Shown here piece by piece: positions 24,099-62,927 of a stretch of 62,927 bases of DNA (the stretch's first letter is position 1; every line of letters starts with the position of its first letter). Below the pieces are notes generated by a model, which was not told the DNA's origin, did no database searches, and saw nothing but the letters and a program-made list of their open reading frames with translations. The DNA lies in assembly GCA_964352275.1 (NCBI GenBank), contig CAYGRF010000001.1, positions 1 to 62,927 on the forward strand. The letters run 5' to 3'. Source of the DNA: an uncultured Caulobacterales bacterium (lineage in GTDB: Bacteria; Pseudomonadota; Alphaproteobacteria; Caulobacterales; Maricaulaceae). The position numbers were made by a program, and so were the translations under genes.

Positions 24099-25144
24099 TG
24101 CCAGCGCCTATACGCGTCAAATTTCTAGCCAGAACGTCCGCCGATCAAGATCCGGCGCTCTGGCTTTCGCTTTTTGCAAAGCGTGCGCCCAAATTTGGCG
24201 ATTGTGAGTTTATCTTTGATCTTGGCACGCAAAGCTATGATTGGCTGGTTGTCTATGAAGATTTGACGTTCCTGCCCGGTGAAACACGGTCAAATCGATC
24301 TGAAATACTCGCGTGTGCGCGAGAGAACACCCTCTTCATCACCACCGAGCCAACGTCTATAAAAATTTACGGGCCGCATTATTTGCGGCAATTCGGGCAT
24401 GTTTTAAGCGTACAGCCGCGTAATATTATAAGTCACCCGAACCAAATTTTTGAGACGCCGCCCCTGCGTTGGTATTACGGGCGGCCATTATCCCCGGATG
24501 ATAACGAGTATATTGACATTGATACTTACGCAGCAACGCCGCCGCTGGAAAAAACGGCTCAGCTCTCCGCAGTCTGTTCAGACAAGCAAATGACGCCGAC
24601 CCTGAAACAGAGATATGATTTCACGGCAGGACTGAAAGCACGGCTAGGCGATGATTTTGACTGGTTCGGGCGCGGCATACGCCCAATTTCAGACAAAGCC
24701 GAGGCCATGGATCGGTTTCGGTATCACATTGCTATTGAAAACCACATCGAGCCGCATCACTGGACAGAAAAAATCGCTGACTGTTTTCTGGCCTATTGTC
24801 TGCCGTTTTATTACGGCCCGCCGAATATCAATGATTATTTCCCCAAAGAGAGCATCATACCCATAGATATATTCGACTCTGAGGGCGCGGCACGCATTAT
24901 AAAAAATGCCATCGACAATGGTGAATATGAAAAACGCCTCCCCGCAATCATCGAAGCCCGAAAGAGGGTTTTAACGGATTATAATATGATGAGCACCATC
25001 TCGCGGCTCATAAAAGAGCGCCATAACGCAACCCTGCCAGCAAAGCCTAACCAATATATATATGGCCGCCATATATTCCGGCATAAGCACCCCGTTGCGG
25101 CTGCAATAGATGCCCTGCACTGCGCGAGGCATAGCACAAAATAA
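24098..25144 (+). CDS. glycosyltransferase family 10 (fucosyltransferase)-like protein
   Basis: YHIAIENHIEPHHWTEKIADCFLAYCLPFYYGPPNINDYFP resembles the GT10 C-terminal motif, roughly (F/I)xxENSxxxGYxTEKxxDA...P(I/V)YxG...F. No signal peptide. The start overlaps the upstream stop (TAATG). Confidence 0.55.
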   Translation: MPAPIRVKFLARTSADQDPALWLSLFAKRAPKFGDCEFIFDLGTQSYDWLVVYEDLTFLPGETRSNRSEILACARENTLFITTEPTSIKIYGPHYLRQFGHVLSVQPRNIISHPNQIFETPPLRWYYGRPLSPDDNEYIDIDTYAATPPLEKTAQLSAVCSDKQMTPTLKQRYDFTAGLKARLGDDFDWFGRGIRPISDKAEAMDRFRYHIAIENHIEPHHWTEKIADCFLAYCLPFYYGPPNINDYFPKESIIPIDIFDSEGAARIIKNAIDNGEYEKRLPAIIEARKRVLTDYNMMSTISRLIKERHNATLPAKPNQYIYGRHIFRHKHPVAAAIDALHCARHSTK

Positions 25145-35448: not shown

Positions 35449-36921
35449 TTACACCGGCGGCATGACAAAAAAGACGGCGGTGGCCATGATTAAAAGACTA
35501 CCAGTAATTGCCATACGCGGCTTGCTGTCTTGCTTCATCAAATACCAAAATACTGGCAACAATAGCACATTCACAAGGATGATAAATGTCTGGAAGGATT
35601 GAGATATAGGCTCCAATATCTCCCCCGACAGACTGGCAGCCAAACGCGGCAGGAATACTGCCATATCGATAGAAACCGCCAAGCCCAGAAAGGCTTTCGC
35701 ACCATCAGAGAGCGTCAGGCGACAGGCCTTCAACACACTCATACCTTTGTCCATCAAAGCAAATCCATACTCCCGGCCGGCAATCAAACCGAGGAAAACA
35801 AAGGTTGTTGACATCGGAATGTCAGACACTTCCTTGAATAGGAATAACAAAGAGGCATAGAAAAAGTCGATAATAGTCGCGGAGCGAATATCGGTAACCG
35901 CCGTTTTGGCTTGTAGAATTTTTTGAACCGGGCCGCCTTTGTTCCAAAACGTGTAAGCCAACAATATAAGAATCGCTGACATCGCTACAAAACCCTCAAG
36001 GGCGGAGAGTTGACGCGGCAAGAATACAAAAATATTGGCAAAATCCTGAATCAACCAAACGCCCCAGAGATAGCCCGTTGTAATCCACTGCAGCAGCACC
36101 CAATAAATGCTATTCTCGGCCCGGTAATTCGCTGCAATCCAAAATATAAAACCGGCAAAAGCCAGCGCCATGACCCCGATCATGACAGGCGGTGCGCCCA
36201 ACAGGCTTAGAAAATAAGCGGAAATTCCTGCGACAACCACAGAAATGCCCGCATCAATTATCTTATTTGTAAAACGCTCATGTGCGGCCAGCGCGATGAG
36301 GTCAACCAAAAGCCCTAAGCAAATGACGGCGCTGGCAGCTTTCAAGCCATACAGTGTCTCATCAATTAAAAGCGGCGGAATAAAACATATGACCAGCGCA
36401 ATCAAAACGCCCATTCCCGTTGCCAGACCCCAAGGGGCCCTGTGACTTAAGGGGTTGTTTTTAAAGTATTTCTCTAATGTTTTCGATAAAACGAGATAAA
36501 CGATGAGGCCGACAATAAAAGCGAGACCATATCCAATGAGGGATTTGGTGAGCATAGACGTCAATCCGCCAACGGACGCAAACACTGTCAGCACCATAAA
36601 TGTTGTCGATACAGGAATTCCAAAGCGCGTAATGATCAAAAGCGCCAGCGGCGGAAGGGTATGATACCATTGTATGCCGCCTTCAGGCCACGGATATTTA
36701 TCAGAATTAGCCAAGCGGCCCCATGACGGGTCTCCGTCATTGATGATCCAGCCATAGGTAAAGGAGGCTACGAGAATGAAGCCAGCAAACAGAAACAGCC
36801 AAAACCAATGTAGGCGCGAATTTGAATTGATAAACGTACCTAGCGTCTGCAAAGCGTCATTGCCAACCACAGCGTAGGCCGCAAATAGAAAGCCAATCGC
36901 TGCAAATATTCCAATTTCCAT
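35449..36921 (-). CDS. polytopic membrane protein, distant PiT/PHO4-superfamily-like permease (candidate sulfate/anion transporter)
   Basis: 490 aa, strongly hydrophobic. N-terminal VVGNDALQTLGTFINS resembles the PiT motif GANDVANAFGTSVGS. Repeated P(V/M)STTF elements (IPVSTTFMVL, IPMSTTFVFLGLIAGRE) resemble the P-x-STTH repeat. Same strand as, and downstream of, the cys operon. Confidence 0.5.
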   Translation of the reverse strand: MEIGIFAAIGFLFAAYAVVGNDALQTLGTFINSNSRLHWFWLFLFAGFILVASFTYGWIINDGDPSWGRLANSDKYPWPEGGIQWYHTLPPLALLIITRFGIPVSTTFMVLTVFASVGGLTSMLTKSLIGYGLAFIVGLIVYLVLSKTLEKYFKNNPLSHRAPWGLATGMGVLIALVICFIPPLLIDETLYGLKAASAVICLGLLVDLIALAAHERFTNKIIDAGISVVVAGISAYFLSLLGAPPVMIGVMALAFAGFIFWIAANYRAENSIYWVLLQWITTGYLWGVWLIQDFANIFVFLPRQLSALEGFVAMSAILILLAYTFWNKGGPVQKILQAKTAVTDIRSATIIDFFYASLLFLFKEVSDIPMSTTFVFLGLIAGREYGFALMDKGMSVLKACRLTLSDGAKAFLGLAVSIDMAVFLPRLAASLSGEILEPISQSFQTFIILVNVLLLPVFWYLMKQDSKPRMAITGSLLIMATAVFFVMPPV

Positions 36922-41727: not shown

Positions 41728-42339
41728 ATGGCCCGCCAAAAACGCAAACCCTGCGCTGAAACCGATGCGATCACTGAGCAACTGGGGAAAACCATACAAC
41801 GCCTGCGGACAGCGGATAAGTTATCACTTGGCGACTTATCCTCCATATCCGGCGTTGCCAAGTCCATGATTTCACAAATCGAGCGCAATGAAACGAACCC
41901 GACTCTCGCAACGCTTTCGCGTCTCAGCCAGGCTTTAGGTGTCAGCGTAGAAACTGTGTTCGCCCAAGATGAAAATACCGACACCCCGCTTGTGCAGCAT
42001 ACCCGCATTCAAGATACGCCGCTTTTGACAAGCGAAGACGGGCTCTGCGAGCTTCGCATTATCGGCTGGATCGAAACCGTGCAATGGACGCAATGGTATG
42101 ACTTCAAAGCTGCGCCGGGCGGACGCCTCGAAAGCTCTCCTCACCCCCACGGCTCGGTAGAAAACCTAACAATCCTCTCAGGCGCATTGCACGTCCATGT
42201 TGACGGCCACATATGGCATGCAAGCGCGGGCGAAACCCTGCGTTATCAAGCCGATAGACCGCATATGATCGTTAATAATGGCGATGTTCCCGCGCAGGCC
42301 ACTATGGTCAATATCCTCGCCCATTCAATTCGGGCGTAA
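41728..42339 (+). CDS. XRE-family HTH transcriptional regulator with C-terminal cupin domain
   Basis: LSLGDLSSISGVAKSMISQIERNETNPTLATLSRLSQALGV (HTH_3), and a C-terminal cupin (HPHGSVENLTILSGAL...G..H). Confidence 0.8.
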   Translation: MARQKRKPCAETDAITEQLGKTIQRLRTADKLSLGDLSSISGVAKSMISQIERNETNPTLATLSRLSQALGVSVETVFAQDENTDTPLVQHTRIQDTPLLTSEDGLCELRIIGWIETVQWTQWYDFKAAPGGRLESSPHPHGSVENLTILSGALHVHVDGHIWHASAGETLRYQADRPHMIVNNGDVPAQATMVNILAHSIRA

Positions 42340-42469
42340 TTGGGTCTATTGGTGTCTTTTTAATGCGAAAGTAACCAATCTTTCATTGGCCTTATCCACA
42401 TTGTTCGTTAGAACACATCGAGTCAGCCGCCCCAAAGCGGCCATCACGACCCAGGGTACGGACAAGACT

Positions 42470-45400
42470 ATGAAATTTAAGCATCTTTTGCTCTCCGCAG
42501 CGATACCGGCAAGCCTTATTGTGGCGGTGCCTTTATCTTTCGCGCAAACCGTTGTCGACGCTGACCGCACCGACCCTATTGTGACATCAACGGCTGGCAC
42601 CAATAGCACGCCTGACGATGTTACGATCAATACAAGCGTCAACATCACCCCGGCTAGTGGCACAGCCATAACTGTGGATTCCGATAATACCGTGATTTTA
42701 GGCGGCAATGTCACGATGGACGATACCAGCGATGTTATTGGCGTCGATCTGCAAGGCGGTAACACAGGCGATTTAACGGTGGCTGGCTCGATTTCCATGA
42801 TCGAGGATTTCACCGGCACGGATGATGACGGCGATAATGTCATTGATGGTGACTTTGCCGAAGGCACTGGCAAAACCGGCATTCTGATTTCCGGCGCGAG
42901 CCCATTTGCCGGGAATGTTACCTTGGCGACCACAGCGCGCATATCCGTCGAAGGCCAAAACTCATACGGCATTCGTATTGAAAATACGAGCGGCCTAACC
43001 GGTGACATCGATATGGGCGGCGTCATCAACATGCTAGGCCGCAACAGCCGCGGGCTTAGCCTTGAGGGCGGCGTGATTGGCAATGTAACCAATAGCGGAA
43101 ATATCACGACGCGCGGCGAGAATGCATCCGCGATTGTCGCATCCGGCGACATTACAGGACAACTCAATAATTCCGGCACGATTGCCAATTCCGGTTACCG
43201 CTTTACAGATCGTCCAACACTTGCCGGGCGCAACTTGTTAGGTCCTGAAGACTTTTGGCAAGCCGGTTCAGCCATTGAAGTGAACGGCAACGTCACAAAC
43301 GGCATCTTCCTCCAGCGCGTTGTCACCACAACCACCAATGACGATGGCACCACCACTGAAACCGTTGACGGTGTAAGTAATATCAATCAACTTGGCAGCG
43401 CTCCTGCGATCCTAATTGACGGTCAAGGCACACCGATTGCGATTGGCATTGTCGCAGCAATTACAGACCCCAATGACGCTAATTTTGTTGAAGCCGAGCA
43501 ATATGCTTTCGTCAACCAAGGCGTATTATCAGCATCCGGTATTTATAACGACTTCAATGCAACGGCTTTCGAAGTTAGGGACGCTACGCTTACGGGCGGC
43601 ATCAATAATACCGCTAACATGGTGGCGAGTGCATTCCGCAGCGGAAACCAAGAGGCGACCGCCGACACTGCGGGAGAGACAGGTCTTGCCCGGGTTATCG
43701 TCCTAGGCGATGGCGCGATTGCAGACCGTATCAATAATTCGGGCCTTATCATTGCCCAAGTCACCGAAGCGACAGATGAAGTTTACGCTGACCGCACAAA
43801 TGTCATAGCCGCCCGTAGTCTACAGGCGGTGGCTATCGATATCGGCGCGAATGCCTCCTTGTCGGAGATTGTTAACTCCAACGGCATTTCAGCAATTCTG
43901 ACAGGACGCAACGGCGAAGCCGTAGCCATTCGTGATGCCTCGGGAACTCTCACCCGTATTGACAATACTGGCAATATTTCCGCTCTCGGCGTGAGTTCTG
44001 ATGCTCAAGGTCTTCAAACCACAAGTTTCAATTTGATTGCGATTGATGTCTCCGCCAACAGCACAGGCTTTACGCTCAACCAATTAGTACCCGTCGACAG
44101 TGACACCACGGATGAACTCACGCCTGCTGACCCTACGATCAGTGGTGATATATTCCTCGGGAGCGGTGACGACACTGTTAACCTCGAGGCCGGGATCATA
44201 TCTGGCGCTCTGGGCTTCGGTGATGGCATGGATGCGTTTAATATTTCCGGCGGCTCCTCTTATAGCGGGAACCTATCAGATACAGACGGCAATCTTACCA
44301 TATCTGTGGCTGATAACAGCACGCTTATAAATACAACCGCAAGCCCCACAGACATTACATCCGCATCTTTTGATGCGACATCCGTATTCCGGCCCACGCT
44401 AGACGGCGCTACCGGCGAAGCCTCTACGCTCAATGCCTCCGGAGACATTACGTTTGCTGACGGCGCAACAATTTCTCCGCTACTGCGTAATGTGATCGAC
44501 TCTGCCAGCACGACATTCCGTATTTTGGATGCGGGCGGCACATTGACCGTTGGCAATGATCTGGGTTCACTCGGCGCGATACAGTCGCCTTTCCTGTATG
44601 ATACATCTTTTGCCATCGACCCGAATGACCCCAACGCCCTGATCATAACGCTCGACCTTCGCTCAACAGATCAACTGGGGCTGGACACGGTTCAAGCCGC
44701 CGGATTTAATTCCGCCTTCAATGCACTGCAAAACAATACAGATCTCGCCAACGCTTTCGTTAATATCACGGACGGTGCCGAATTTAACAGCTCACTTAAT
44801 CAACTCCTGCCTGAATTTGCCGCTGCCGCGCGGCAATTTATCGTGGCCAATGTCGACGGAGCCGTCGGCGCAGTCGGCACCCATTTGGACAATGCCCGCA
44901 AATCTCAAGCCAAATCTGGCGGTGTCTGGATTCAGGAATTTGCCTATTTTGCTGATCGCGATCTCGCGGGCCTATCCGAACAATATCGCGGCCACGGGTT
45001 TGGCCTGTCTGGCGGAATGGATACAGCGTTTGGCCCGTTCCATTCAGTCGGCGTGAACGTAGGCTTTGCCACAACTGAAATTGAAGACGTTGTCGGTGTT
45101 GATGAGCCTCTCGATGTGGTCACATTCCAGCTCGGCACATATGCAGGATATAGTTCAGGCAATCTCGGCGTCGAAGCCTATGCCGGTCTGGGGTTCAATG
45201 ACTTTGAATCCTCTCGCAAGATCGAGGTCGGTAGCTTTAGTGGCTCGTCTCAGGGCGACTGGACGGGGCAGCATTACAACACCTCCTTGCGCGCCGGTTA
45301 TGACCTTAAAATCAGTGATAAATTCTGGGCGCGTCCGGCGGTATCTGTTGACTATCTCAGGCTCACAGAAGACGGCTACACAGAAGACGGGCCGATTGGT

Positions 45401-45745
45401 ATTGCCTTGGAGGTCGATAAACGCACATCCGAGCTTGGCGGCGCGACAGCGATGCTGAACTTCGGCGCGACCTTCCAAGGCCGCCGCACATCGCTTAGCC
45501 CGTCCATCCGCATGGGCTACCGCAACGAATTTATCAATAGCGGTCTTGAAACCAATTACCGTTTCGCCGGACTGAACACACCTGCAACATTGATCGGCGA
45601 AGAATTCCCGTCCAGCGCTATTTTGCTTGGCTTCTCACTCTCCGCTGGCAGTGATTTCTCATCCCTCGGATTGGACATTGATAGCGACATTCGTGACGGG
45701 TTTATCCGTCACACCGGCCGTATTGTTCTCCGCTTGATATTCTAA
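42470..45745 (+). CDS. autotransporter (type Va) outer-membrane protein with long beta-helical passenger
   Basis: Signal peptide MKFKHLLLSAAIPASLIVAVPLSFAQT. Repetitive G/N/T-rich passenger with recurring xNxGxI units. C-terminal ~280-aa barrel ending ...GRIVLRLIF (terminal aromatic residue). Confidence 0.8.
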   Translation: MKFKHLLLSAAIPASLIVAVPLSFAQTVVDADRTDPIVTSTAGTNSTPDDVTINTSVNITPASGTAITVDSDNTVILGGNVTMDDTSDVIGVDLQGGNTGDLTVAGSISMIEDFTGTDDDGDNVIDGDFAEGTGKTGILISGASPFAGNVTLATTARISVEGQNSYGIRIENTSGLTGDIDMGGVINMLGRNSRGLSLEGGVIGNVTNSGNITTRGENASAIVASGDITGQLNNSGTIANSGYRFTDRPTLAGRNLLGPEDFWQAGSAIEVNGNVTNGIFLQRVVTTTTNDDGTTTETVDGVSNINQLGSAPAILIDGQGTPIAIGIVAAITDPNDANFVEAEQYAFVNQGVLSASGIYNDFNATAFEVRDATLTGGINNTANMVASAFRSGNQEATADTAGETGLARVIVLGDGAIADRINNSGLIIAQVTEATDEVYADRTNVIAARSLQAVAIDIGANASLSEIVNSNGISAILTGRNGEAVAIRDASGTLTRIDNTGNISALGVSSDAQGLQTTSFNLIAIDVSANSTGFTLNQLVPVDSDTTDELTPADPTISGDIFLGSGDDTVNLEAGIISGALGFGDGMDAFNISGGSSYSGNLSDTDGNLTISVADNSTLINTTASPTDITSASFDATSVFRPTLDGATGEASTLNASGDITFADGATISPLLRNVIDSASTTFRILDAGGTLTVGNDLGSLGAIQSPFLYDTSFAIDPNDPNALIITLDLRSTDQLGLDTVQAAGFNSAFNALQNNTDLANAFVNITDGAEFNSSLNQLLPEFAAAARQFIVANVDGAVGAVGTHLDNARKSQAKSGGVWIQEFAYFADRDLAGLSEQYRGHGFGLSGGMDTAFGPFHSVGVNVGFATTEIEDVVGVDEPLDVVTFQLGTYAGYSSGNLGVEAYAGLGFNDFESSRKIEVGSFSGSSQGDWTGQHYNTSLRAGYDLKISDKFWARPAVSVDYLRLTEDGYTEDGPIGIALEVDKRTSELGGATAMLNFGATFQGRRTSLSPSIRMGYRNEFINSGLETNYRFAGLNTPATLIGEEFPSSAILLGFSLSAGSDFSSLGLDIDSDIRDGFIRHTGRIVLRLIF

Positions 45746-47276: not shown

Positions 47277-47618
47277 CTATCCGTAGACAGATTCCTTACC
47301 GAAATGTTTGGCGAGCATGTAATAAACCACAGCGCGATATTTGCTCCGCTCTGAGCGGCCATACTTTTCCATCACTGCGTCGATCGCTGCGTCAAGCTCA
47401 GGGCCGTCGGACAGGCCGAGCTTTTTAATGAGGAAGTTATTTTTCACGGTTTCAAGCTCGGATTTATCACTGCCGGCAACAGTCGACGAATCTGCGTTAT
47501 ATATTGATGGCCCGCAGCCGATCGTCACTTTGGTCAATAAGTCCATATTGGGCGTTTCGCCAATTTTATTTTGAATGTCATCTGCATATTTTGCAATAAG
47601 GTCGTCCCGTTTACTCAT
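47277..47618 (-). CDS. DUF2853 family protein
   Basis: MSKRDDLIAKYADDI...LLTKVTIGCGPSIYNADSSTVAGSD...NFLIKKLGL...KYRAVVYYMLAKHFGKE. AAAGGA lies 6 nt before the ATG at 47618. Confidence 0.75.
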   Translation of the reverse strand: MSKRDDLIAKYADDIQNKIGETPNMDLLTKVTIGCGPSIYNADSSTVAGSDKSELETVKNNFLIKKLGLSDGPELDAAIDAVMEKYGRSERSKYRAVVYYMLAKHFGKESVYG

Positions 47619-47721
47619 GATAGTTCCTTTCAATAAGAGTATGGTCGTTCTAGGCCGCCCCGCCTAAACCCAAGGTGAACATAAGCGAGCGCTATCGTCG
47701 CGCGCAAGTGATTTTCCACGC

Positions 47722-47750
47722 TTGACGCCCCCGTTCCGTTCGCCTATATC
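47722..47750 (+). promoter_or_regulatory. sigma70-like promoter candidate for rpmE
   Basis: TTGACG (47722-47727), 17-nt spacer, TATATC (47745-47750), about 75 nt upstream of the rpmE ATG. Confidence 0.45.
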
Positions 47751-47823
47751 GCCCAACTTGAGCGGGGGACCCTCTAACGTAATCCCGTGACCAGAGCCCT
47801 TGTCTTGGGGCAGGAGATTTAAA

Positions 47824-48042
47824 ATGAAAAAAGACATTCACCCTGATTATCACATGATCACCGTGCAAATGGTGGACGGCAGCGAGTATCAAACACGCTC
47901 AACATACGGCAAAGAAGGCGACCGCCTAGTGCTGGATATTGACAGCAAAACCCATCCGGCCTGGACTGGCGGCGACGCCAAGCTTATGGATCGCGGCGGA
48001 CGCGTGTCACGCTTCAAAGACAAATTCAAAGGTTTCGTATAA
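47824..48042 (+). CDS. rpmE: 50S ribosomal protein L31
   Basis: [10 protein letters not shown]...HPAWTG...RFKDKF. No CxxC pairs are visible, so it appears to be the non-zinc-ribbon form. Confidence 0.95.
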
Positions 48043-48059
48043 ACGATATATACTTTGGT

Positions 48060-48154
48060 TTAGTGCATTTCCTGTACAATTCTACGCATTGAACCATCGG
48101 AAATGGGCAAATAAGGCCCAATTTCCTATTGCGACTTTACAGGAATTACACCAA
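48060..48154. repeat. ~95-bp palindromic intergenic repeat, copy B
   Basis: TTAGTGCATTTCC ... ATCGGAAATGGGCAAATAAGGCCCAATTTCC ... GGAATTACACCAA aligns with the reverse complement of 35333-35428. Confidence 0.6.
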
Positions 48155-48155
48155 G

Positions 48156-48180
48156 CGGCTCCTTTTGGGGCCGTTTTTTT
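48156..48180 (+). terminator. rho-independent terminator of rpmE
   Basis: Stem CGGCTCC / GGGGCCG (one G-U pair), TTTT loop, followed by T7. Confidence 0.7.
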
Positions 48181-48220
48181 ATGCCAACTTTGCACCGGCA
48201 GCATGAGAGCCGTCGCCATT

Positions 48221-48253
48221 AAAAAACCCGCCTCAATGTCTCGAAGCGGGTTT
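48221..48253 (-). terminator. rho-independent terminator of rpmB
   Basis: Stem CCCGCCTC / GAAGCGGG (one mismatch), followed on the minus strand by T6. Confidence 0.6.
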
Positions 48254-48281
48254 GAAGTTTTAGTATAGACTATCGATCTAT

Positions 48282-48581
48282 CTATGCAGCCGCCTCGGCT
48301 TCTGCGTGCTTTTTAATCAAAGCTTTTTTGATTTTCATCGCCTTGTCTGTCAGCTTGGCGTTTTTAGTGCCCATCAGGAAACCGTCAAGACCGCCTTTAA
48401 AGTCGACAGTACGAAGCGTTTTTGCAGCAACGCGCATTCTGTATTTTTGCCCAAGACCATCAGAAGCCAGCGTGACATTACAGAGGTTGACCTCAAAACG
48501 GCGTCGCGTTCTGGTTTTAGAGTGAGACACATTATTTCCGGACATCGGGCCCGTATCAAGAAGATCGCAACGACGAGACAT
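48282..48581 (-). CDS. rpmB: 50S ribosomal protein L28
   Basis: MSRRCDLLDTGPMSGNNVSHSKTRTRRRFEVNL... AAGGTG Shine-Dalgarno before the ATG at 48581. Confidence 0.95.
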   Translation of the reverse strand: MSRRCDLLDTGPMSGNNVSHSKTRTRRRFEVNLCNVTLASDGLGQKYRMRVAAKTLRTVDFKGGLDGFLMGTKNAKLTDKAMKIKKALIKKHAEAEAAA

Positions 48582-48812
48582 ATCGTACACCTTTATACAT
48601 TTAAAAAGCCCGCAAGCGGCGGGCGAATATTCATTAGTGGCCGGACATACGCATTAGGCCGCGCTGCGTCAAGACTTTTTACGCGTTTTTAAAGGCCGAA
48701 AACCGCATCTGTAAATGACCAATTTGTCATGCACATTAACGGTTTTATTCATGTTGGTGATAGGCAGGCACAGATATAAAGAGCTAAATAGATTGACTGT
48801 AAGGATGATACG

Positions 48813-53187: not shown

Positions 53188-53646
53188 ATGCCGCGCCGCA
53201 CGGATAAATCGCTTGTCATTTACACGGACGGTGCCTGCTCAGGCAATCCTGGGCCCGGCGGCTGGGGCGCATTGATGCAATTTGGCGAGGCCGAAAAAGA
53301 ACTTTTTGGCGGCGAACCGGATACAACCAATAACCGGATGGAATTGATGGCCGCAATCAAAGCGCTCGAAGCCATCAAACCGGGCTTTGCGGGCTCCATC
53401 ACCCTCTGGACCGATAGCACATATGTGATGAAGGGTATCACCGAGTGGATTCACGGCTGGAAAAAACGCGGCTGGAAAAAATCCGACAAAAAACCGGTCG
53501 TCAACTCAGATCTATGGAAACTCCTCGATGCGGTGAACGCCAAGCATGATGTGAATTGGAAATGGGTCAAAGGCCACGCCGGAGTCGACGGCAATGAGCG
53601 CGCGGACGAGCTTGCCAGGCGCGGGATACCGGGCGCAGAGGATTAG
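53188..53646 (+). CDS. rnhA: ribonuclease HI
   Basis: [37 protein letters not shown]...GNERADELA. Confidence 0.95.
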
Positions 53647-53726: not shown

Positions 53727-54479
53727 CTAATCATCACCCCGATGATCTATCCCTAAGATACGATCAAGGGCAGTATGAATGCCGCTTAGGACAGCAATCT
53801 CCGGCCCCTGAACCATTTTTACATAGGAATCCATCCTGTAAAGGTTATCGATAAGGTCGTTTCTGAAACCGGCGCTCTCCATCATCAGCATAGGGTAACA
53901 GCTATGGCCGCCATAAGGCGCCGTGCCGAAACGGTCATAAGTGAGCGTGCTGTTAAGTGAAATCACTTGCGGATACTTGCGGTGCAATTCCACCGCATCG
54001 CCGCTAATTCTCATATTGAAATCATCTGTGGCCCGTCGCAGTTGGCTCAATAGCAAGATTGATTTGCGCAGGTTCTCATCCGAAATAATCGAAGCCCGGC
54101 CGCTCGCAATGAGTTCCTCCACCGTCGGGATAGACACCCTGCCCGGGCGGTAGATATGGGAAGCAAACACAGCATCACATTGATCGCGTGTCAAAGAGTC
54201 TACTGCGCCATCGCCAGACATAATTTCCGCGACTTCGGTGAGCAAACCGATTGTGGTTTTTAATTCTTTTTCAATCAACACATTTGCGGCTTCACCCGTG
54301 CCAATCTCAGCATGAAGCCGCTGCATGTACAGAAAATTATCAGCCCGGTCTGCTCTGCGATCATTCCAATTGGCCACTTGGATACCGACAAAAACACCGA
54401 ACACGACTATGATAAAATCAATCCCGACAGCGAACCAGTTTTCTTTTTCAATATGGGCCTTTATACGGCGGAAGATCAT
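53727..54479 (-). CDS. single-pass membrane protein, DUF6090-like, paralog P1
   Basis: MIFRRIKAHIEKENWFAVGIDFIIVVFGVFVGIQVANWN anchor plus a ~210-aa helical ectodomain. About three quarters identical to P3 (59223-59981) by eye. ATGA overlap with P2. Confidence 0.75.
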   Translation of the reverse strand: MIFRRIKAHIEKENWFAVGIDFIIVVFGVFVGIQVANWNDRRADRADNFLYMQRLHAEIGTGEAANVLIEKELKTTIGLLTEVAEIMSGDGAVDSLTRDQCDAVFASHIYRPGRVSIPTVEELIASGRASIISDENLRKSILLLSQLRRATDDFNMRISGDAVELHRKYPQVISLNSTLTYDRFGTAPYGGHSCYPMLMMESAGFRNDLIDNLYRMDSYVKMVQGPEIAVLSGIHTALDRILGIDHRGDD

Positions 54480-55237
54480 GGCGTGGCCTCGTCATGAGAG
54501 ATTTTTAGCGCCAGATCGAGCTGTTTATGAACTTCTTTGACCTGAACGAGCCAAGGCCCTAACCCATCGCGTATAAACGCATCAAAAGTGTCGGCGTTCA
54601 GCGCGATATCATTCATAAGATTCTGGTTCGTCCGAATATAGTCTCGATCACACGACGCGGTAAAGGATCGTTCAAATCCATTCTCACGGAGTTCACTAGG
54701 GTTAAGAACAGACTGCATCTTAAACGCATCGGGATATAAATGGGCAAGGTCGTGCATAGCGCTTTCCAGACCGATAGCAATTTCTAACGCCTCGCGGCGT
54801 TGCAGAAGTCCGACTAATGCTGTGTTTAGATTTGAGTTGCGCACGATATTAAGCCGTCCTGTGGCTTGCAAGCGCGATAAAGCCGGTAGGTCAACACGTC
54901 CAAGATATAAGGCACTGGATCCCGCTAAAGCCGTACATTCTCCATCACTCAAACGGCGTTCAGGGACGAGGCCAAACAATACATTCGTCGCCTCGGCAAT
55001 ATCGGACGCATAGAGCGTTCTATAACTGATGATGTTCGCTGTAAGCGCTTCCGCAGCTATCATTTCTTCGTGCAAGGCTTTAATCGTGGCCTGTTCGTCA
55101 ATGCGGTCTGATCTCGCCTCATTCCAATTGGCGACTTGCATACCAATAAAGACCCCGACAACCACGATAAAGAAATCAATCCCGACAGCGAACCAGTTTT
55201 CTTTTTCAATATGGGCCTTAATGCTGCGAAAGATCAT
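54476..55237 (-). CDS. single-pass membrane protein, DUF6090-like, paralog P2
   Basis: Same N-terminal anchor (MIFRSIKAHIEKENWFAVGIDFFIVVVGVFIGMQVANWN) with a divergent C-terminal domain. Confidence 0.75.
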   Translation of the reverse strand: MIFRSIKAHIEKENWFAVGIDFFIVVVGVFIGMQVANWNEARSDRIDEQATIKALHEEMIAAEALTANIISYRTLYASDIAEATNVLFGLVPERRLSDGECTALAGSSALYLGRVDLPALSRLQATGRLNIVRNSNLNTALVGLLQRREALEIAIGLESAMHDLAHLYPDAFKMQSVLNPSELRENGFERSFTASCDRDYIRTNQNLMNDIALNADTFDAFIRDGLGPWLVQVKEVHKQLDLALKISHDEATP

Positions 55238-55477
55238 GCGCTCATCACCCTATTGATTTATATGAAGTCGCGGATGTCAAAGAGCAATTGCGGGCAATGT
55301 CGTCGATGGTAAGTTTACAAATAAACATCTCTTCATAGCCCCTCCTCTGAGGAGCAACTGTTCACCATTTCTGTGCGGAAAGCTACATATTTATTCCAGC
55401 CGCCGGGGCACTGTATCGGCGGGATAAACGCGTTACGCCAATACCTTTCGGCTCAACTTTTTCAATTATACCGATTT

Positions 55478-56581
55478 CTATTTCGGCGCGCTCGACGCCC
55501 CAACAACTAACCGCGAGAATGTCGCCTGCGCGTAATCGCCGTTCTCTTTATCAACATCCCAATCACCCGTGCCGTTACAGGCCGCGTACCAGAAGCCGGG
55601 ATCGTTCTTTGTACTGCATTGATTGTAAATGCCGGCTTTGAAGTAAAGCGAATCGCCGCCGTAACTATACCGATTATCAAGCGCGTCCACATTGCCGTTC
55701 GCGTCAATATTGTTGGCTAGATTGATCGCGTACTCGGCGGCTGGGCTACCGGCCCGCTCAAAAGTTAAATACATTGTATTTTGATGGACATTAACAACGT
55801 AGCTAAATTCTTCGCCCAGCGCGATACCGCCTTCGCCGGGATCAGCCGGATTGTCCCATAAATTACCCCACACAGGATAGGCTATATCTGTGCGGTCGGG
55901 ATTATCTTTCGCGAGGTTACGTTCATACGTCCAGAATACAGAGCCTGTATCGTGATCCGGCCATTTCTTATAATAGATTTTTAGCGGTTCATTCCCAAAG
56001 CCGAAACCGCTCTTAGTGCTCTCATATTTCACAGCGTGAATTTGTCCGATAACCGCTGAAAAAGCTGGCTTTTTGCTAGGGTTTTCCGCCCGGCGCGCGA
56101 CATGATCAACGGTGAGCGTGGCTTCCATTTTGCCGCCGACAGAGCCAAATTTATCAGAGTCTTTGCGCGCAAGCACGGCGAAATTATTGGCCGCACTGTG
56201 CGTTTTTATTCTACGGTTTTTACCGCGCAGCATATAGCGCAGTTCGCTACGTGTGTTCGTCGTATTTTTGGTCTTGGCCCCTTTATTGGGCGCGGTGAAA
56301 ACCATCCGGTTTTGCTCATCCAAATAAAAGAAATTCGGATGGGAATATGTCTCGAGGTCTTTCACGGAAATACTATCGACCTTTCCGTCATTATTTTCAT
56401 CGACCGGCAGCGTGATGTTCCAGTGGCTCAGGTCAAACTGGCTGGCGGGCGCAAGCGATTTATCTTTGATGCCTTTGCTCTGCGCCGAAGCCGCCGCCGG
56501 AAATGCCATCAGGATCAAAGCTGCTAAGCCAGCCGAGCCAAAACACATGCGCCGTAATCGTTTATCTATCATCATAGTCAT
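55478..56581 (-). CDS. exported polysaccharide lyase family 7 (alginate lyase-like)
   Basis: Signal peptide ...AFPAAASAQ. PL7 signature strings RSELR, GQIH and YFKAGIYNQ. The start is ambiguous among ATGs at 56581, 56575 and 56572. Confidence 0.75.
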   Translation of the reverse strand: MTMMIDKRLRRMCFGSAGLAALILMAFPAAASAQSKGIKDKSLAPASQFDLSHWNITLPVDENNDGKVDSISVKDLETYSHPNFFYLDEQNRMVFTAPNKGAKTKNTTNTRSELRYMLRGKNRRIKTHSAANNFAVLARKDSDKFGSVGGKMEATLTVDHVARRAENPSKKPAFSAVIGQIHAVKYESTKSGFGFGNEPLKIYYKKWPDHDTGSVFWTYERNLAKDNPDRTDIAYPVWGNLWDNPADPGEGGIALGEEFSYVVNVHQNTMYLTFERAGSPAAEYAINLANNIDANGNVDALDNRYSYGGDSLYFKAGIYNQCSTKNDPGFWYAACNGTGDWDVDKENGDYAQATFSRLVVGASSAPK

Positions 56582-56782
56582 ACCCTCTATAATTGGACTG
56601 GCGTTCTTATAGGCCAATTTATATCATGATATATACCAATTACAAATCAGAGTACACTATCCATAACAGCCTCTTATAGATCCGCATTTAGCGCGATAAA
56701 ATCGGTGAAACGCGGCAGCAAATATATTCGCAAATTGCTATATTCTACGATCTGACTTATCCTGCTACCCGGAGTGGTGTTT

Positions 56783-59203
56783 ATGATAAAACAATTGGGA
56801 GTTCTTGTTGTCTTCATATGCCTCATCGCATTTGCAGGCGCGGCGTCGGCGCAGACAGGGCTTGAGGCATTGAAGAACAAACCCGCGATCCCAACACTGG
56901 ATCAACAGGACATAGAGGAAAAGTTCTTCGCCAAGGACAGCAACACATCTTTTGAATATACTGGCGATTGTGAAGAACCGCCGCGCCCGACCGCCACCTG
57001 CACATTAGCAAAGCGGACATTTGGGGCGGTCGCTGTGACGCGGCAAGCCGCGCCATTTCAAGTTCAAATTATCAATACATTCTCGGATGCGCAGCTTAAG
57101 CCCTATCAGGAAGCGGGGCAGCCTTTGTGGGAGCTTCGTCATGTATGTGGAGGCGCGCTCATCGACCGGCATTGGGTGCTAAGCGCAGCGCATTGTTTCC
57201 GCAAGGGCCAACCCTATCTAGTGCGCCTTGATGTCGATAATATCTCCCAAACCAACACTATGACCTATGACGTGGATGAGATTATCCCCCATGAGGCCTA
57301 TAACGCAGAGACACTAGAAAATGACATCGCTCTTATCCGCCTCAAACCCGTGAACAATGGTATGGTTATCGAGCCCTATGACCCGTGGAAAAAGACCAAA
57401 GATAGTAAAAATCAAATTGTCTATGCAGATATAAGCGCGGATGGCCGCCGATTGATAACCATTTCGGACGGCGCCGCGAAATTATGGGACACAGAGACCG
57501 GCAAGCAGCTCTATCATTCGCTGGACATGTTGGAACAAAACCCCGTGATGACCCCTTCCTCGCACCAACTCTTGGGCGTGGACACAGAGGCCGCATGGGT
57601 TGTTGACCTTGAGACGGGGGAAGAGGATGAAATTTATCAGCACAGCACGCCGATAAAAGCAGCAGACTTTAGCCCTGATAATAGCCGCGCTCTGACCATG
57701 GGGCATGACGGCAATATTGTTATATGGGATCGCGCCGCCAAATCATACCGTGCAAGACTCTCGCATGGCCCGGGTCTTTTAACAGCAAAGTTTGCGGCTC
57801 CGGACTATGTGATAACGACCGCCGAAACCGGGGATGCTCGCGCTCACGCTACGCATACGGTCAAACTTTGGTACGCAGGCCACCATTCCAATAGACCGAT
57901 TAGGCAGTTTGACAATGTCCATAAAGAAAACCCCTATTATGTTTTAAGCCATGAGAATACTGTGATGGTAAGACAGCACAATCAATTGGTCATTGCCAAC
58001 TTGGAAACAGGCCAAGACCTACGCAGCATGGACATGCCAAACCCGGATTGGCAAATGACCCCGCCTCATGAAGACGGCACCATAATGACGTGGGATGGCA
58101 GCGGCATCGTCACACATTGGGATATAAAATCCGGGCAGATTAAGCAGCAGTGGAAAGATTGGTTACTTGAATCAATTATTGGCTATGACCCTAAGACAAG
58201 GCACCTTTTAGGATGGCAGGGGGTTCGAACTGTTGAAATCGTTGATAATCGCGGGGCTTATATGTCAACACTTCCGCCGAAAGTGACAGTATGGGACGCC
58301 GATAGCGGCGGAAAAATAAATACCCCTACGCTCACCAACATCAACACACCGAGTGCGAACATTCATTTTATCAATGATGGCAAACACATAGTGATAACTT
58401 CACCGCTTGGCAGGAGCGAGGTGCTGAACGCTGCAAACGGCAAGCGCGTTTTTCAAATCAATCACAGCCTACCGGTTTCCGAAATACGGCCTTCCAAAAG
58501 CGGGAAATACCTCTTAAGCCGCAGTGACTTTGGCTTAGCCGATGTGTGGGTTTCAAAGACAGGGAAAGCCGCCGCCCGGTTTTTTCACGGCGCGTCTGTC
58601 AGCGGCATGAAGCTTTATGATAATGATACGCGTTTATTGACGTGGGGGCTATCCGGCAAAGCGCGGCTTTGGGATATTGAGACCGGTAAGCAATTATCCC
58701 ACTTTGTCCACTTTGGCGGCGAGGACAACGAAACACGCAGCAGCACCGAAACGCCCCGCAACCCCTCGCTTGTGAGTATTGTCAATTTCAGCCAATCCCC
58801 TGCGGATCTGTCCATAGACCAGACCGTCACAACACTGGGCTGGGGCAAAACCAAGCCGGTCAGCCGCGAGTATGAGCCTTCCGCTGTGCTGAGAATGATT
58901 GGTCTCTCGGTTATTGACCACGAAAAGTGTGAAACATTGATGGGCGACTCGGAAGAGATTGGTGACGATGTCTTTTGTGCATACGCAGATGACCGCAAAA
59001 CATGCTATGGCGATAGCGGCGGCCCGGTTATCGGCGGCGAAAAAGTCGTCGGCATCGTTAGCCGCGGCTCCGCCGGCTGCGGCGACGGCATGCCTAGCCT
59101 CTACACAAACGTCGCGAAATATGCAGGCTGGATTAAAAAGACAAGTTGCGCCGAAAATATACAAGGAACGCGGCCGGATTATTGCGAGCATGGTACAGAA
59201 TAA
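56783..59203 (+). CDS. secreted trypsin-fold serine protease with a ~470-aa WD40-like repeat region nested inside the catalytic domain
   Basis: GGAG lies 8 nt before the ATG at 56783. Signal peptide ...AFAGAASAQ. WVLSAAHC (His) and ENDIALIRL (Asp) are in the N-terminal part. TTLGWG and CYGDSGGP (Ser) appear only after ~470 aa of repeats such as AKLWDTETGKQL and ARLWDIETGKQL. Confidence 0.8.
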   Translation: MIKQLGVLVVFICLIAFAGAASAQTGLEALKNKPAIPTLDQQDIEEKFFAKDSNTSFEYTGDCEEPPRPTATCTLAKRTFGAVAVTRQAAPFQVQIINTFSDAQLKPYQEAGQPLWELRHVCGGALIDRHWVLSAAHCFRKGQPYLVRLDVDNISQTNTMTYDVDEIIPHEAYNAETLENDIALIRLKPVNNGMVIEPYDPWKKTKDSKNQIVYADISADGRRLITISDGAAKLWDTETGKQLYHSLDMLEQNPVMTPSSHQLLGVDTEAAWVVDLETGEEDEIYQHSTPIKAADFSPDNSRALTMGHDGNIVIWDRAAKSYRARLSHGPGLLTAKFAAPDYVITTAETGDARAHATHTVKLWYAGHHSNRPIRQFDNVHKENPYYVLSHENTVMVRQHNQLVIANLETGQDLRSMDMPNPDWQMTPPHEDGTIMTWDGSGIVTHWDIKSGQIKQQWKDWLLESIIGYDPKTRHLLGWQGVRTVEIVDNRGAYMSTLPPKVTVWDADSGGKINTPTLTNINTPSANIHFINDGKHIVITSPLGRSEVLNAANGKRVFQINHSLPVSEIRPSKSGKYLLSRSDFGLADVWVSKTGKAAARFFHGASVSGMKLYDNDTRLLTWGLSGKARLWDIETGKQLSHFVHFGGEDNETRSSTETPRNPSLVSIVNFSQSPADLSIDQTVTTLGWGKTKPVSREYEPSAVLRMIGLSVIDHEKCETLMGDSEEIGDDVFCAYADDRKTCYGDSGGPVIGGEKVVGIVSRGSAGCGDGMPSLYTNVAKYAGWIKKTSCAENIQGTRPDYCEHGTE

Positions 59204-59222
59204 CAGCGTCGCCGCCTATCCC

Positions 59223-59981
59223 TTAACCGGGCTTTCCATTACTATGATCAAAACCTAAAATCCGATCCAAAGATCTATGTATATCAGACAATACCGCGAT
59301 TTCGGGTTCATTGACCAATTTGACGAATGAATCCATCCGGTAAAGATTATCTATGAGATCATTTTTGAAGCCCGGATTATTTTTCATGAGCTCAAGATGG
59401 CATTTGTGCCCGCCATATGGCGCAGACCCGAAACGATCATAGGTCAACGTACTATTGAGAATAATGACCTCCGGATATTTCCGGTGCAATTCCAAGGCAT
59501 CATTACTGATGCGTCCATTAAAATCATCCGTTGCGCGGCGCAGTTGCGTTAGCCGCAGAATATCTCTGCGTAATGTATCATCCGATATAACCGACGCGCG
59601 GCCACTTGCGATCAACTCCTCAATGGTTGGAATGGAAACACGTCCCGGGCGATAAATATGCGAAGCGAAAACAGCATCGCATTGATCCCGCGTAAGAGGT
59701 CCGGTTGGGACATCACTGGAAACAATGCCCGCAACTTCAGTCAGGAGCCTAACAGTTTCATTAAGCTCCAAAAGGATAGGAATATTCGCAGCATCCACCG
59801 CTCCCATCTCGTCATGAAGCCGTTGCATATAGAGGAAATTATCAGCGCGGTCTGCCCGAGCAGTATTCCAATTGGCCACTTGGATACCTATGAAAACACC
59901 GAACACAACGATAAGGAAATCAATCCCAACAGCGAACCAGTTCTCTTTCTCAATATGGGCTTTGATGCGGCGGAAGATCAT
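59223..59981 (-). CDS. single-pass membrane protein, DUF6090-like, paralog P3
   Basis: MIFRRIKAHIEKENWFAVGIDFLIVVFGVFIGIQVANWN. Close paralog of P1. ATGA overlap with P4. Confidence 0.75.
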   Translation of the reverse strand: MIFRRIKAHIEKENWFAVGIDFLIVVFGVFIGIQVANWNTARADRADNFLYMQRLHDEMGAVDAANIPILLELNETVRLLTEVAGIVSSDVPTGPLTRDQCDAVFASHIYRPGRVSIPTIEELIASGRASVISDDTLRRDILRLTQLRRATDDFNGRISNDALELHRKYPEVIILNSTLTYDRFGSAPYGGHKCHLELMKNNPGFKNDLIDNLYRMDSFVKLVNEPEIAVLSDIHRSLDRILGFDHSNGKPG

Positions 59982-60754
59982 GGTTTACCTTCTAATTCTG
60001 CATCAATTTCTTTAATGACATTTTGCCCTCTGACACGAAAAGAATCGTAAGCTTTTAAATTGAAAACAATTTGTCCTGTCCAGTATTGGAGTTCTTGTCG
60101 CAACATTGGATTAGACCGCAATGAGGTTAAAATATTTTCGATTTTATCATCACTCAAATTTTGCTCGCAATTCGTGAGAAACACCTCAAGGTCATTTCTC
60201 TCCCCGCCAACAGTCGAATGACAATTTTGCCATAAAGCCTGCGCGGCATCAGGCGGAAAAAGCCCCCTAACTGTTTGTCTGTATTGTGGAAATTCCGACG
60301 TCACAAGGCTGTCGGCACGCTCGTTTTTATCATAAACAATCATCGCATCTTTTAATGTTGGTGAACGCGGCAACCCAAGACGTAGCATCTCGTCAAAGAT
60401 TACGCGTGAACGCGCCTCAGCCGGCACCTGAGAGGCGATAAAAAAATCGACCAAAAGCTCCCAGCATTGACTTTCGCACGGGCCGTCAGCATCAAGAAAC
60501 GAAAGCGCCCGCTTACTGGAAGCAAGGATCTGCTCTCTGAGTTCATATTTATTATTTCCCACACGAATATTTTCCGTCATCTCGGCCCTTAGTTCGGAGA
60601 GATAGCCCGATTCGACTTTCAAAAATTGTCTGGCCTCATTCCAGTTTGCCACTTGCAAACCGATAAAAACACCAAAAACAACGATGATAAAATCAATCCC
60701 AACAGCGAACCAGTTCTCTTTTTCAATATGGGCTTTTATGCGGCGAAAGATAAT
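59978..60754 (-). CDS. single-pass membrane protein, DUF6090-like, paralog P4, probable ATT start
   Basis: The ORF track starts at the internal Met at 60658. The frame stays open upstream and encodes IIFRRIKAHIEKENWFAVGIDFIIVVFGVFIGLQVANWN, beginning with ATT at 60754. AAGGA lies 9 nt upstream and an in-frame TAA is at 60767-60769. Confidence 0.6.
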   Translation of the reverse strand: MIFRRIKAHIEKENWFAVGIDFIIVVFGVFIGLQVANWNEARQFLKVESGYLSELRAEMTENIRVGNNKYELREQILASSKRALSFLDADGPCESQCWELLVDFFIASQVPAEARSRVIFDEMLRLGLPRSPTLKDAMIVYDKNERADSLVTSEFPQYRQTVRGLFPPDAAQALWQNCHSTVGGERNDLEVFLTNCEQNLSDDKIENILTSLRSNPMLRQELQYWTGQIVFNLKAYDSFRVRGQNVIKEIDAELEGKP

Positions 60755-62585: not shown

Positions 62586-62660
62586 ATTGAGCCCGTTCTA
62601 AGGGGTTAGGGCCCCCATGTCTTGCGGAAAATAAAACCGACACAAAAGACCAGGGTAATA

Positions 62661-62800
62661 CCCCCATATTTGGAGCGCCACTTATAAAATAACGCACTGC
62701 TGACACCATGCTCGCAGCATGGCGCAGGCACTGGCGTATGCGCCTTAGCCTACTTTAGTATCGCTATGATTTGGCTGTTACTATATCTGCTTATTCTCAT
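62661..62800 (-). mobile_element. relic of an IS3-family transposase orfA (N-terminal HTH part only, with in-frame TAG)
   Basis: The minus strand reads MRISRYSNSQIIAILK-TAG-AKAHTPVPAPCCEHGVSSALFYKWRSKYGG. This matches the IS3/IS911 OrfA pattern ...FSEEQIIAILKEAEAG.PV.ELCR.HGIS.ATFYKWR.KYGG. Similarity is lost after KYGG. Confidence 0.65.
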
Positions 62801-62927
62801 CGTAAAATCCCCTGCGTGAAGCATATAGAAAATTCTACTTATGATCCCCGCTAAAATATGAAGGAACTACCCACAACAGACTTTCAAATCATAGATAACA
62901 AATCCTTAGATCGTCCACGCTATCTAG

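Follow-up and report, generated by a model that had tools for sequence, protein, structure and literature searches.

A stretch of 62,927 nucleotides from an uncultured bacterium of the Caulobacterales (contig CAYGRF010000001.1; we refer to the whole stretch as the window) contains, at positions 53727 to 60754, four paralogous genes for membrane proteins that resemble the Pfam family DUF6090 (P1 to P4), together with a gene for a PL7 alginate lyase and a gene for a trypsin-like protease whose catalytic domain is split by a propeller. We conclude that this region is probably a small, interrupted remnant of a tandem array of the paralogs' family, with two unrelated genes for exported enzymes lodged between the fragments. 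The original prediction, made from the letters alone, had offered two other readings: a functional extracellular module in which the paralogs are membrane-anchored partners of the lyase and the protease, or capture of the two enzyme genes by recombination between duplicated pairs. The gene order and strands that it gave, P1(-) P2(-) / PL7 lyase(-) / protease(+) / P3(-) P4(-), are those of our map of open reading frames (ORFs), and the ATGA overlaps that it described from P2 into P1 and from P4 into P3 are present at both junctions, the upstream stop codon and the downstream start codon sharing four bases (CC ATG A).

Arrays are the usual setting of the family. Among 80 genome loci that we retrieved with the family profile, same-strand arrays reach 16 to 17 family genes, and 188 of the 329 consecutive same-strand junctions are 4-bp overlaps (a further 37 are 1-bp overlaps). 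The independent JGI gene calls show the same pattern and confirm an array of 7+3 genes. Since arrays and 4-bp overlaps are normal in the family, the "coupled pairs" of the window reflect a family habit. The arrays are also frequently broken: 34 of 64 are interrupted by unrelated ORFs, and the embedded ORFs are heterogeneous, including SnoaL-like lipoproteins, a cupin, a putative zincin, an antitoxin-like pair, and a phage-like block. Comparison of the ectodomains showed that 287 of 295 have their best match in another genome, with a median best identity of 28% within an array and 52% across genomes. Clustering sorted the ectodomains into more than 100 old types, at least 49 of them recurrent and 66 represented only once, and no conserved order of types was seen among the arrays.

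We noted interruptions in three of the loci (L027 12406-12690, L043 4238-4914, and L074 10985-18118) that comprise an antitoxin-like/toxin-like pair and a phage-like block that includes a terminase-like ORF. Interruptions of the toxin and phage type suggest that the arrays are permissive insertion sites.

The enzymes and the paralogs, moreover, segregate from one another in both directions. The genome comparison that had been proposed, for co-occurrence of the pairs with PL7 or trypsin-propeller genes, was carried out and revealed no case: 87 family loci (up to 21 kb) held no homologue of the PL7 lyase or of the trypsin-WD40 protease, and the 0.99 Mb surrounding five PL7 orthologues, two protease relatives, and 80 ispH loci held no gene of the family. 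The five PL7 orthologues (70-80% identity) occupy four types of setting other than that of the window, namely two classical alginate-utilization loci, a VWA/DUF2339 site, an ABC/HlyD site, and a β-oxidation site. The protease relatives are found next to MerR in one instance and next to TIR-TPR and SLATT genes in the other. Across about 170 related loci there was, in sum, no sign of a conserved team of enzymes and membrane proteins.

This segregation leaves the functional module without support; independent segregation is what the original prediction had named, along with a lack of co-expression, as evidence against it. In the module view the paralogs would be partners dedicated to the lyase and the protease in the processing of algal polymers, acting for example as tethers, inhibitors, or maturation factors. 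In its favor, each of the six products appears to be either exported or anchored in the membrane, as judged by reading the N-termini; the genes lie close together, the stop codons of the protease gene and P3 being 19 bp apart and the PL7 gene, P2, and P1 being on the same strand; and the organism was found in biofilm and macroalgal metagenomes. Yet co-occurrence is absent in either direction: PL7 orthologues lie in alginate loci or other settings without family genes, the protease relatives have the neighbors just described, and orthologues of P1 to P4 occur in arrays without such enzymes. We therefore consider the module very unlikely. The simplest view of what looked like a purposeful island is that its genes are neighbors by coincidence, and annotation of the region as an alginate or protease module is unwarranted.

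Relationships among the paralogs bear on the second of the earlier readings. P1 and P3 are 76% identical in the alignment and 77% identical over 246 amino acids (aa) by BLASTP, in agreement with the three-quarters identity claimed for them, and they are one of only seven within-locus duplicates in the ectodomain comparison across the family loci. The claim that the upstream members P2 and P4 share only the anchor holds when the two are compared with each other, their BLASTP alignment being limited to residues 1-59 (69% identity), but both also match P1 and P3: BLASTP aligns P2 to P1/P3 from end to end with 35% identity and P4 over 175 aa with 37% identity, and one hidden Markov model (HMM) of the family matches all four proteins. 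The nearest outside relatives of P1 (66-69% ectodomain identity) are in Robiginitomaculum and Caulobacterales metagenome-assembled genome (MAG) loci, L001 and L004. The P2 ectodomain, of a subfamily (Ab) found in 16 loci, has its best match (66%) in locus L079 (10001-10759), and Robiginitomaculum MAGs give 53%; the pattern hints at transfer of a cassette across classes, or at a mislabeled bin. We note that L079 comes from a MAG labeled Gammaproteobacteria. For the P4 ectodomain, the best relative in another genome is 43% identical, and P4 itself is 49% identical to L004_10756 over 254 aa. P3 is a lineage-specific duplicate of P1, and the ectodomains of P2 (Ab) and P4 (Ao) belong to types that are old and distinct; along the direction of transcription the subfamilies follow one another as Ao(P4)-An(P3) / Ab(P2)-An(P1), and neither pair, taken as a whole, is a duplicate of the other. 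The idea that the enzyme genes were captured between duplicated pairs is half borne out: the arrays are indeed plastic, as the frequency of interruption shows, but only P1 and P3 are duplicates, not the pairs.

All four paralogs begin with nearly the same sequence, 38 of the first 39 alignment columns being invariant. The 117 nucleotides that encode this anchor are 84-88% identical between the four genes, and each pair of anchors shows 9-13 synonymous differences among about 35 codons with an identical residue. Recent gene conversion as the source of the identity is ruled out by these differences, which argue that the constancy of the anchor is due to selection on the protein. No orphan anchor relics lie between the pairs; the window holds exactly four copies of the anchor. 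Coordinates of these and other features are collected in Table 1.

Table 1. Features of the paralog region and its surroundings (positions in the window)
Feature	Position	Strand	Description
rnhA	53188-53646	+	Last gene of the argS-lipoprotein-ispH-rnhA block; left edge of the variable region
P1	53727-54479	-	250 aa DUF6090-like bitopic membrane protein, ectodomain subfamily An; downstream member of pair 1; ORF and family HMM match
Anchor module of P1, codons 1-39	54363-54479	-	MIFRRIKAHIEKENW + transmembrane segment FAVGIDFIIVVFGVFVGIQVANW, then N
P2	54476-55237	-	253 aa paralog, ectodomain subfamily Ab; stop shares 4 bp with P1 start
Anchor module of P2	55121-55237	-	Same module
PL7 alginate lyase	55478-56575	-	365 aa database gene call; PF08787
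Lyase-protease spacer	56576-56782	.	207 bp between divergent starts; AT-richer, GC 0.454
S1 protease with WD40 insertion	56783-59203	+	806 aa gene call; Pfam Trypsin in two stretches
Protease N-barrel	57056-57391	+	Approximate
Protease propeller	57392-58768	+	Approximate; about 470 residues, WD40
Protease C-barrel	58769-59143	+	Approximate
P3	59223-59981	-	252 aa paralog, subfamily An; convergent with the protease gene, 19 bp between stops
Anchor module of P3	59865-59981	-	Same module
P4	59978-60754	-	258-codon paralog, subfamily Ao; ATT at the family start position; stop shares 4 bp with P3 start
Anchor module of P4	60638-60754	-	Same module
IS3-type OrfA helix-turn-helix fragment	62609-62749	-	...CEHGVSSALFYKWRSKYGG...; six-frame translation and PF01527

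Several observations weigh against the interpretation of the region as an array remnant with two unrelated lodgers. The 80 loci were chosen by similarity to P3, and the survey is to that extent not unbiased. We found no insertion scars (direct or inverted repeats) flanking the lyase-protease pair, no relative close enough to display an empty site (the nearest ispH contigs are 72-81% identical), and no RNA runs containing the stretch. The role that we propose below for the family is without experimental or structural precedent: a Foldseek search of the PDB with a model of P3 returned nothing at E<0.3, the weak matches being generic helical bundles, and the best profile match to PDB sequences, RpoD, was discarded as not meaningful (E=0.045). 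Finally, other arrays embed exported or small-molecule enzymes, such as SnoaL_2 lipoproteins (12 loci), a cupin, and a putative zincin, so that a looser functional tie of the arrays to periplasmic enzymes is possible.

Such a tie could take the form of a general tether, in which the anchors of the family would serve diverse periplasmic enzymes as membrane adaptors, with the enzymes encoded inside arrays as clients. In the window the clients would be the lyase and the protease, and elsewhere SnoaL-like, cupin, zincin-like, or lactonase proteins. Non-family ORFs lie within or beside half of the arrays, and many of them have signal-peptide-like N-termini; the SnoaL_2 genes recur at a median distance of about 5 bp; and a single array (L176) gathers genes for SnoaL_2, glyoxalase, sulfotransferase, SGL, and cupin proteins. 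Most arrays and most junctions, however, lack an embedded enzyme, and the embedded ORFs are a mixture that includes the antitoxin-like pair and the phage-like block, which points rather to a permissive insertion site. We judge the general tether to be improbable. A bolder formulation is that DUF6090-like arrays constitute an undescribed combinatorial envelope system, in which a constant anchor docks onto a common partner or onto other paralogs and more than 100 exchangeable periplasmic heads, co-translated from overlapping genes, form a repertoire of receptors or adaptors, with lodged exported enzymes, here the lyase and the split protease, among the clients; we regard this, too, as a long shot.

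Under the interpretation that we prefer, an interrupted remnant of an array, P1 to P4 would be bitopic inner-membrane proteins with a basic cytoplasmic N-terminus of 15 residues, a single transmembrane helix, and a periplasmic head. The helix carries an invariant Asp and a Q-V-x-N-W exit motif, and it would lead into an all-helical periplasmic stalk and head of about 210 residues, probably stabilized by a disulfide between two conserved cysteines. The members of a pair would be translated in a coupled manner from one mRNA. The constant anchor would insert with its N-terminus inside and might mediate assembly with other paralogs or with a common membrane partner, the invariant residues Asp21, Gln34, Asn37, and Trp38 being candidates for the assembly or docking element, and the variable heads may serve as a binding repertoire in the periplasm. 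The proximity of the lyase and protease genes to the paralogs would result from an insertion or rearrangement in a plastic array and would not reflect a shared function.

A word-index search recovered 414 relatives of P1 to P4, and a full profile search recovered 13,816 representative clusters (50% identity) at E<=1e-3, of which 5,662 score at E<=1e-10. The best 150 of the 13,816 clusters are all proteins with a single domain and a length of 173-275 aa. Across Alpha- and Gammaproteobacteria the first 40 residues (MIFRRIKAHVEKENWFAVGIDFxIVVxGVFIGIQVANWN) hardly vary, and the remaining 210 or so residues, which form the ectodomain, are about 30% identical and contain the two conserved cysteines. 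The relationship to DUF6090 (PF19578) is one of size class and of an N-terminal transmembrane helix ending in Q-[IV]-x-N-W-N. The window proteins differ from the Pfam family in that P1, P3, and P4 score 13.0, 17.2, and 13.1 bits, below the gathering threshold of 23.5 (P2 has no match), and in that the alignment covers the anchor only (profile positions 2-43 of 182), leaving the ectodomains outside the model. Nevertheless, 18 of 41 aligned relatives match PF19578 at E<=0.01 (best E=3e-8), and several homologues carry a precomputed PF19578 match or the NCBI name "DUF6090 family protein." The label "DUF6090-like" in the original prediction is therefore fair at the level of a superfamily, and we place P1 to P4, on profile evidence, in a huge family at the edge of Pfam DUF6090. 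No mention of DUF6090 or PF19578 was found in the literature searched, and the array organization is not described there; models of known anti-phage defense and phage families (PADLOC and PHROG) gave zero matches for the six proteins of the region. With about 14,000 clusters at 50% identity, a near-invariant anchor, and long arrays in which the genes overlap and take their ectodomains from a large stock of old types, the family shows a pattern that is usually the mark of systems for assembly or recognition. Taken alone, the region is of modest interest; what deserves attention is the family behind the paralogs, together with the split protease.

The AlphaFold2 model of P3 (predicted local distance difference test score, pLDDT, 89) is all-helical, with one helix (residues 15-88) forming the transmembrane segment and stalk, a head, and a helix of 40 residues (203-242) that returns. 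Two known systems invite comparison. Like type IV pilins and the pseudopilins of type II secretion, the family has a conserved hydrophobic helix at the N-terminus that contains an acidic residue and continues as a long α-1 helix, a variable C-terminal domain with a pair of cysteines, and tandem paralogs in often overlapping genes. Unlike type IV pilins, it has no prepilin peptidase site (G-1, F+1, E+5), position 19 being G, F, C, or V and the acidic residue falling at +2, and its ectodomain is all-helical, not α/β. No pilin family appeared at E<=0.1 in the Pfam scan of the window proteins, and no gene for a secretion ATPase or platform protein recurred among the neighbors. With the stator subunits ExbD, TolR, and MotB the proteins have in common a single transmembrane helix with an Asp (here the invariant Asp21), which is a resemblance only; there were no Pfam matches to ExbD or MotB at E<=0.1 and no recurrent ExbB or MotA neighbor at the family loci. 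The defining features of both systems were checked and found to be absent, and we treat the likenesses as analogies only.

Other genes, too, recur near the arrays. A protein of 600-730 aa with an N-terminal transmembrane segment (KLFxELKRRNVFRVAGVY..) and Pfam TPR repeats is encoded near arrays in 18 loci (for example, L068 7180-9051, L025 12386-14548, and L176 1794-3908) and is not encoded near the pairs of the window; its middle region was read as TolB-like by eye only. Small membrane proteins of 160-200 aa, whose transmembrane helix ends in (Q/E)V(R)QN, are encoded inside arrays in 24 loci (for example, L020 8915-9466 and L001 5145-6891). We considered a link between these '...QVRQN' proteins and the family, but an hhalign probability of 1% leaves them not demonstrably related.

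The protease is the more unusual of the two enzymes. Pfam Trypsin (PF00089) matches it with 144 bits in two stretches, with WD40 propeller models between them (PF00400, 36.6 bits against a threshold of 27; many propeller models match residues 210-650). Both halves align to trypsins in the PDB: residues ~125-203 correspond to trypsin residues 20-103 and residues ~673-791 to trypsin residues 114-225. Since the two parts of solved trypsins map to the two ends of the protein, the insertion of the propeller is real, and the description as a propeller-split protease was apt. The protease domain is not contiguous, its two barrels being parted by the propeller. In common with chymotrypsin-fold S1A proteases the protein has both β-barrels, the His-Asp-Ser triad, and the GDSGGP motif; the triad, H137 (AAHC), D181 (NDIAL), and S745 (GDSGGP), is invariant in the three known members, all of which have export signals. 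Only two full-length relatives (33% and 28% identical) were found among 5.8 billion proteins, and none of the best 60 matches to solved S1 structures is longer than 275 aa. The protein is, as far as its residues tell, an exported S1 enzyme with an intact catalytic site. An AlphaFold model built from the three sequences had a pLDDT of 52.5, too poor to show how the domains pack, and was set aside unused.

Bacterial trypsin-like peptidases have been linked to WD40 and TPR modules in conflict systems (Kaur et al. 2020, PMC7159879), and the TIR-TPR/SLATT neighborhood of one relative is of a type described in that paper. The split architecture is not described in its passages on trypsin. The propeller of the window protein sits inside the protease domain (between trypsin residues ~103 and ~114) and is not fused at an end, which distinguishes the protein from both S1A proteases and the conflict-system peptidases. 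We observed that the gene for the 28%-identical relative (L089-L091) is head-to-head with that for a TIR_2-TPR protein and near that for a SLATT_3 protein, surroundings that are typical of conflict or defense systems and unlike those of the window. The inserted propeller most likely serves to gate or select substrates, and the split protease, with three sequence clusters known, offers a clean case for control of a classical active site by an inserted domain.

The lyase, by comparison with other PL7 alginate lyases, presents no notable difference. It matches PF08787 (Alginate_lyase2) with E=8e-59 and 199.6 bits (threshold 29.7) over profile positions 1-223 of 225, and the translation of 55478-56617(-), the longest ORF, which begins at TTG 56617, contains RSELR, QIH, and YFKAGIYNQ. 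The signature motifs of PL7 are R(S/T)E(L/V)R, Q(I/V)H, and YFKAG(V/I)YNQ. A Sec-type signal peptide (...AFPAAASA, followed by QS) can be read from the translation. Among about 1,480 homologues at E<=1e-20, the top ones, which number in the hundreds, are 64-81% identical and come from Hellea, Litorimonas, and alphaproteobacterial MAGs. The gene is, to judge from these similarities, that of an ordinary secreted alginate lyase of the Hellea/Litorimonas/Robiginitomaculum group. No other alginate-utilization gene was found among the window ORFs scanned; the lyase gene is an orphan here, unlike the two orthologues that lie within complete alginate loci.

The lyase and protease genes diverge from a spacer in which a common regulatory region is possible. 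Promoter and terminator scans gave counts at shuffled expectation, and promoter-like matches in the spacer were no higher than in shuffled sequence. A single terminator-like hairpin lies directly beyond P1 (53716-53698). We also noticed an inverted repeat of 35 nucleotides (80% complementary) between 56479-56513 and 56821-56855, which covers the ends of the signal peptides of the two divergent genes (..AFPAAASAQS in the lyase and ..AFAGAASAQT in the protease). It may be due to chance in Ala-rich codons or to a common origin of both leaders.

Because the sequence derives from a biofilm metagenome, the pair adjacencies might, in principle, be products of a mis-join through the repeated anchor-coding sequence. 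Both pair junctions were assembled through this repeat. The k-mer depth of the P3 anchor in the main sequencing run, X1 (59883-60004), is 85-125, compared with about 12 for the genome, which indicates that the biofilm community carries many genes with the same anchor sequence; X1 unitigs break inside the anchors; and the segment 59917-61323, comprising P4 and a flavodoxin-like gene, has an X1 depth of 4.4-6.4, compared with about 11.8 in both flanks, and the P4 ectodomain is missing from a second run, X2. Nonetheless, X1 unitigs tile the whole region with matching ends, and a single unitig crosses each ATGA junction (54432-55202 and 59917-60381). The anchors are only 84-88% identical within the genome, which larger k-mers or read pairs can resolve, and neighbors with a 4-bp overlap are the norm for the family. 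A mis-join at one or both pairs is thus quite unlikely. The stretch recurs at low depth in a macroalgal metagenome. Identical P3 fragments there raised the idea of a mobile cassette, which was rejected: other parts of the window are present there at 99-100% as well, which makes it the same strain at low depth.

P4 calls for separate comment. Its ectodomain (60005-60614) is represented by no contig in run X2, although the flanks were recovered, and together with the reduced depth in X1 this raises the possibility that P4 is a sub-population variant, with about half of the population perhaps carrying something other than the P4 segment. P4 may, alternatively, be decaying, a change of the start codon from ATG to ATT having silenced it along with translational coupling into P3. 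Its homologous start is ATT (60754-60752) where P1 to P3 carry ATG, a detail that the original prediction passed over, the first canonical start (TTG 60658) falls within the transmembrane helix, and its GC content is the lowest of the four (43%, within a range of 43-49% for P1 to P4); the depth below that of the flanks also fits. Set against this, the frame of 258 codons is intact with AAGGA 9 nucleotides upstream of the ATT, and P3 has its own GAAGG upstream. ATT is, moreover, a rare but used start codon in bacteria, as in infC. On balance we consider decay of P4 possible but not likely.

The accessory origin that had been proposed for the region stands in part. The argS-lipoprotein-ispH-rnhA block is conserved in about 20 related metagenome contigs (62-84% aa identity), and in all of them synteny stops directly after rnhA and gives way to differing gene content, which makes the left edge a real one. 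To the right, the genes for a flavodoxin-like protein and for ADH are likewise absent downstream of rnhA in all relatives, so that the right boundary could not be set. Of the two observations cited in support, the IS3 relic is a fragment of about 47 aa that matches PF01527 (HTH_Tnp_1) at E=2.2e-4 with 21.8 bits, just below the cut-off of 24.1, over profile positions 28-51 only (the window ends at 62927), and the difference in GC content is modest (48.6% inside, 51.3% outside), the low values lying in P1 to P4. The genes for the lyase (50%) and the protease (51%) look native, their GC content being that of the rest of the window.

Elsewhere in the window the ORFs scanned with Pfam are ordinary chromosomal metabolic genes and genes for a sensor kinase, an OmpA-family protein, DUF proteins, and one autotransporter. 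Neither tRNA genes nor Rfam matches were found anywhere in the window. Three ORFs have no Pfam match at E<=1e-5 (4052-6352(-), 766 aa; 24098-25144(+), 348 aa; and 35449-36921(-), 490 aa). At 41728-45745, a gene for an HTH_3-cupin regulator overlaps the downstream gene for the autotransporter of 1155 aa, which has a PF03797 β-domain and a passenger without a Pfam match. A patch of low GC content (about 0.45) at 47277-48600 corresponds to the ordinary genes rpmE (47824-48042, +) and rpmB (48282-48581, -).

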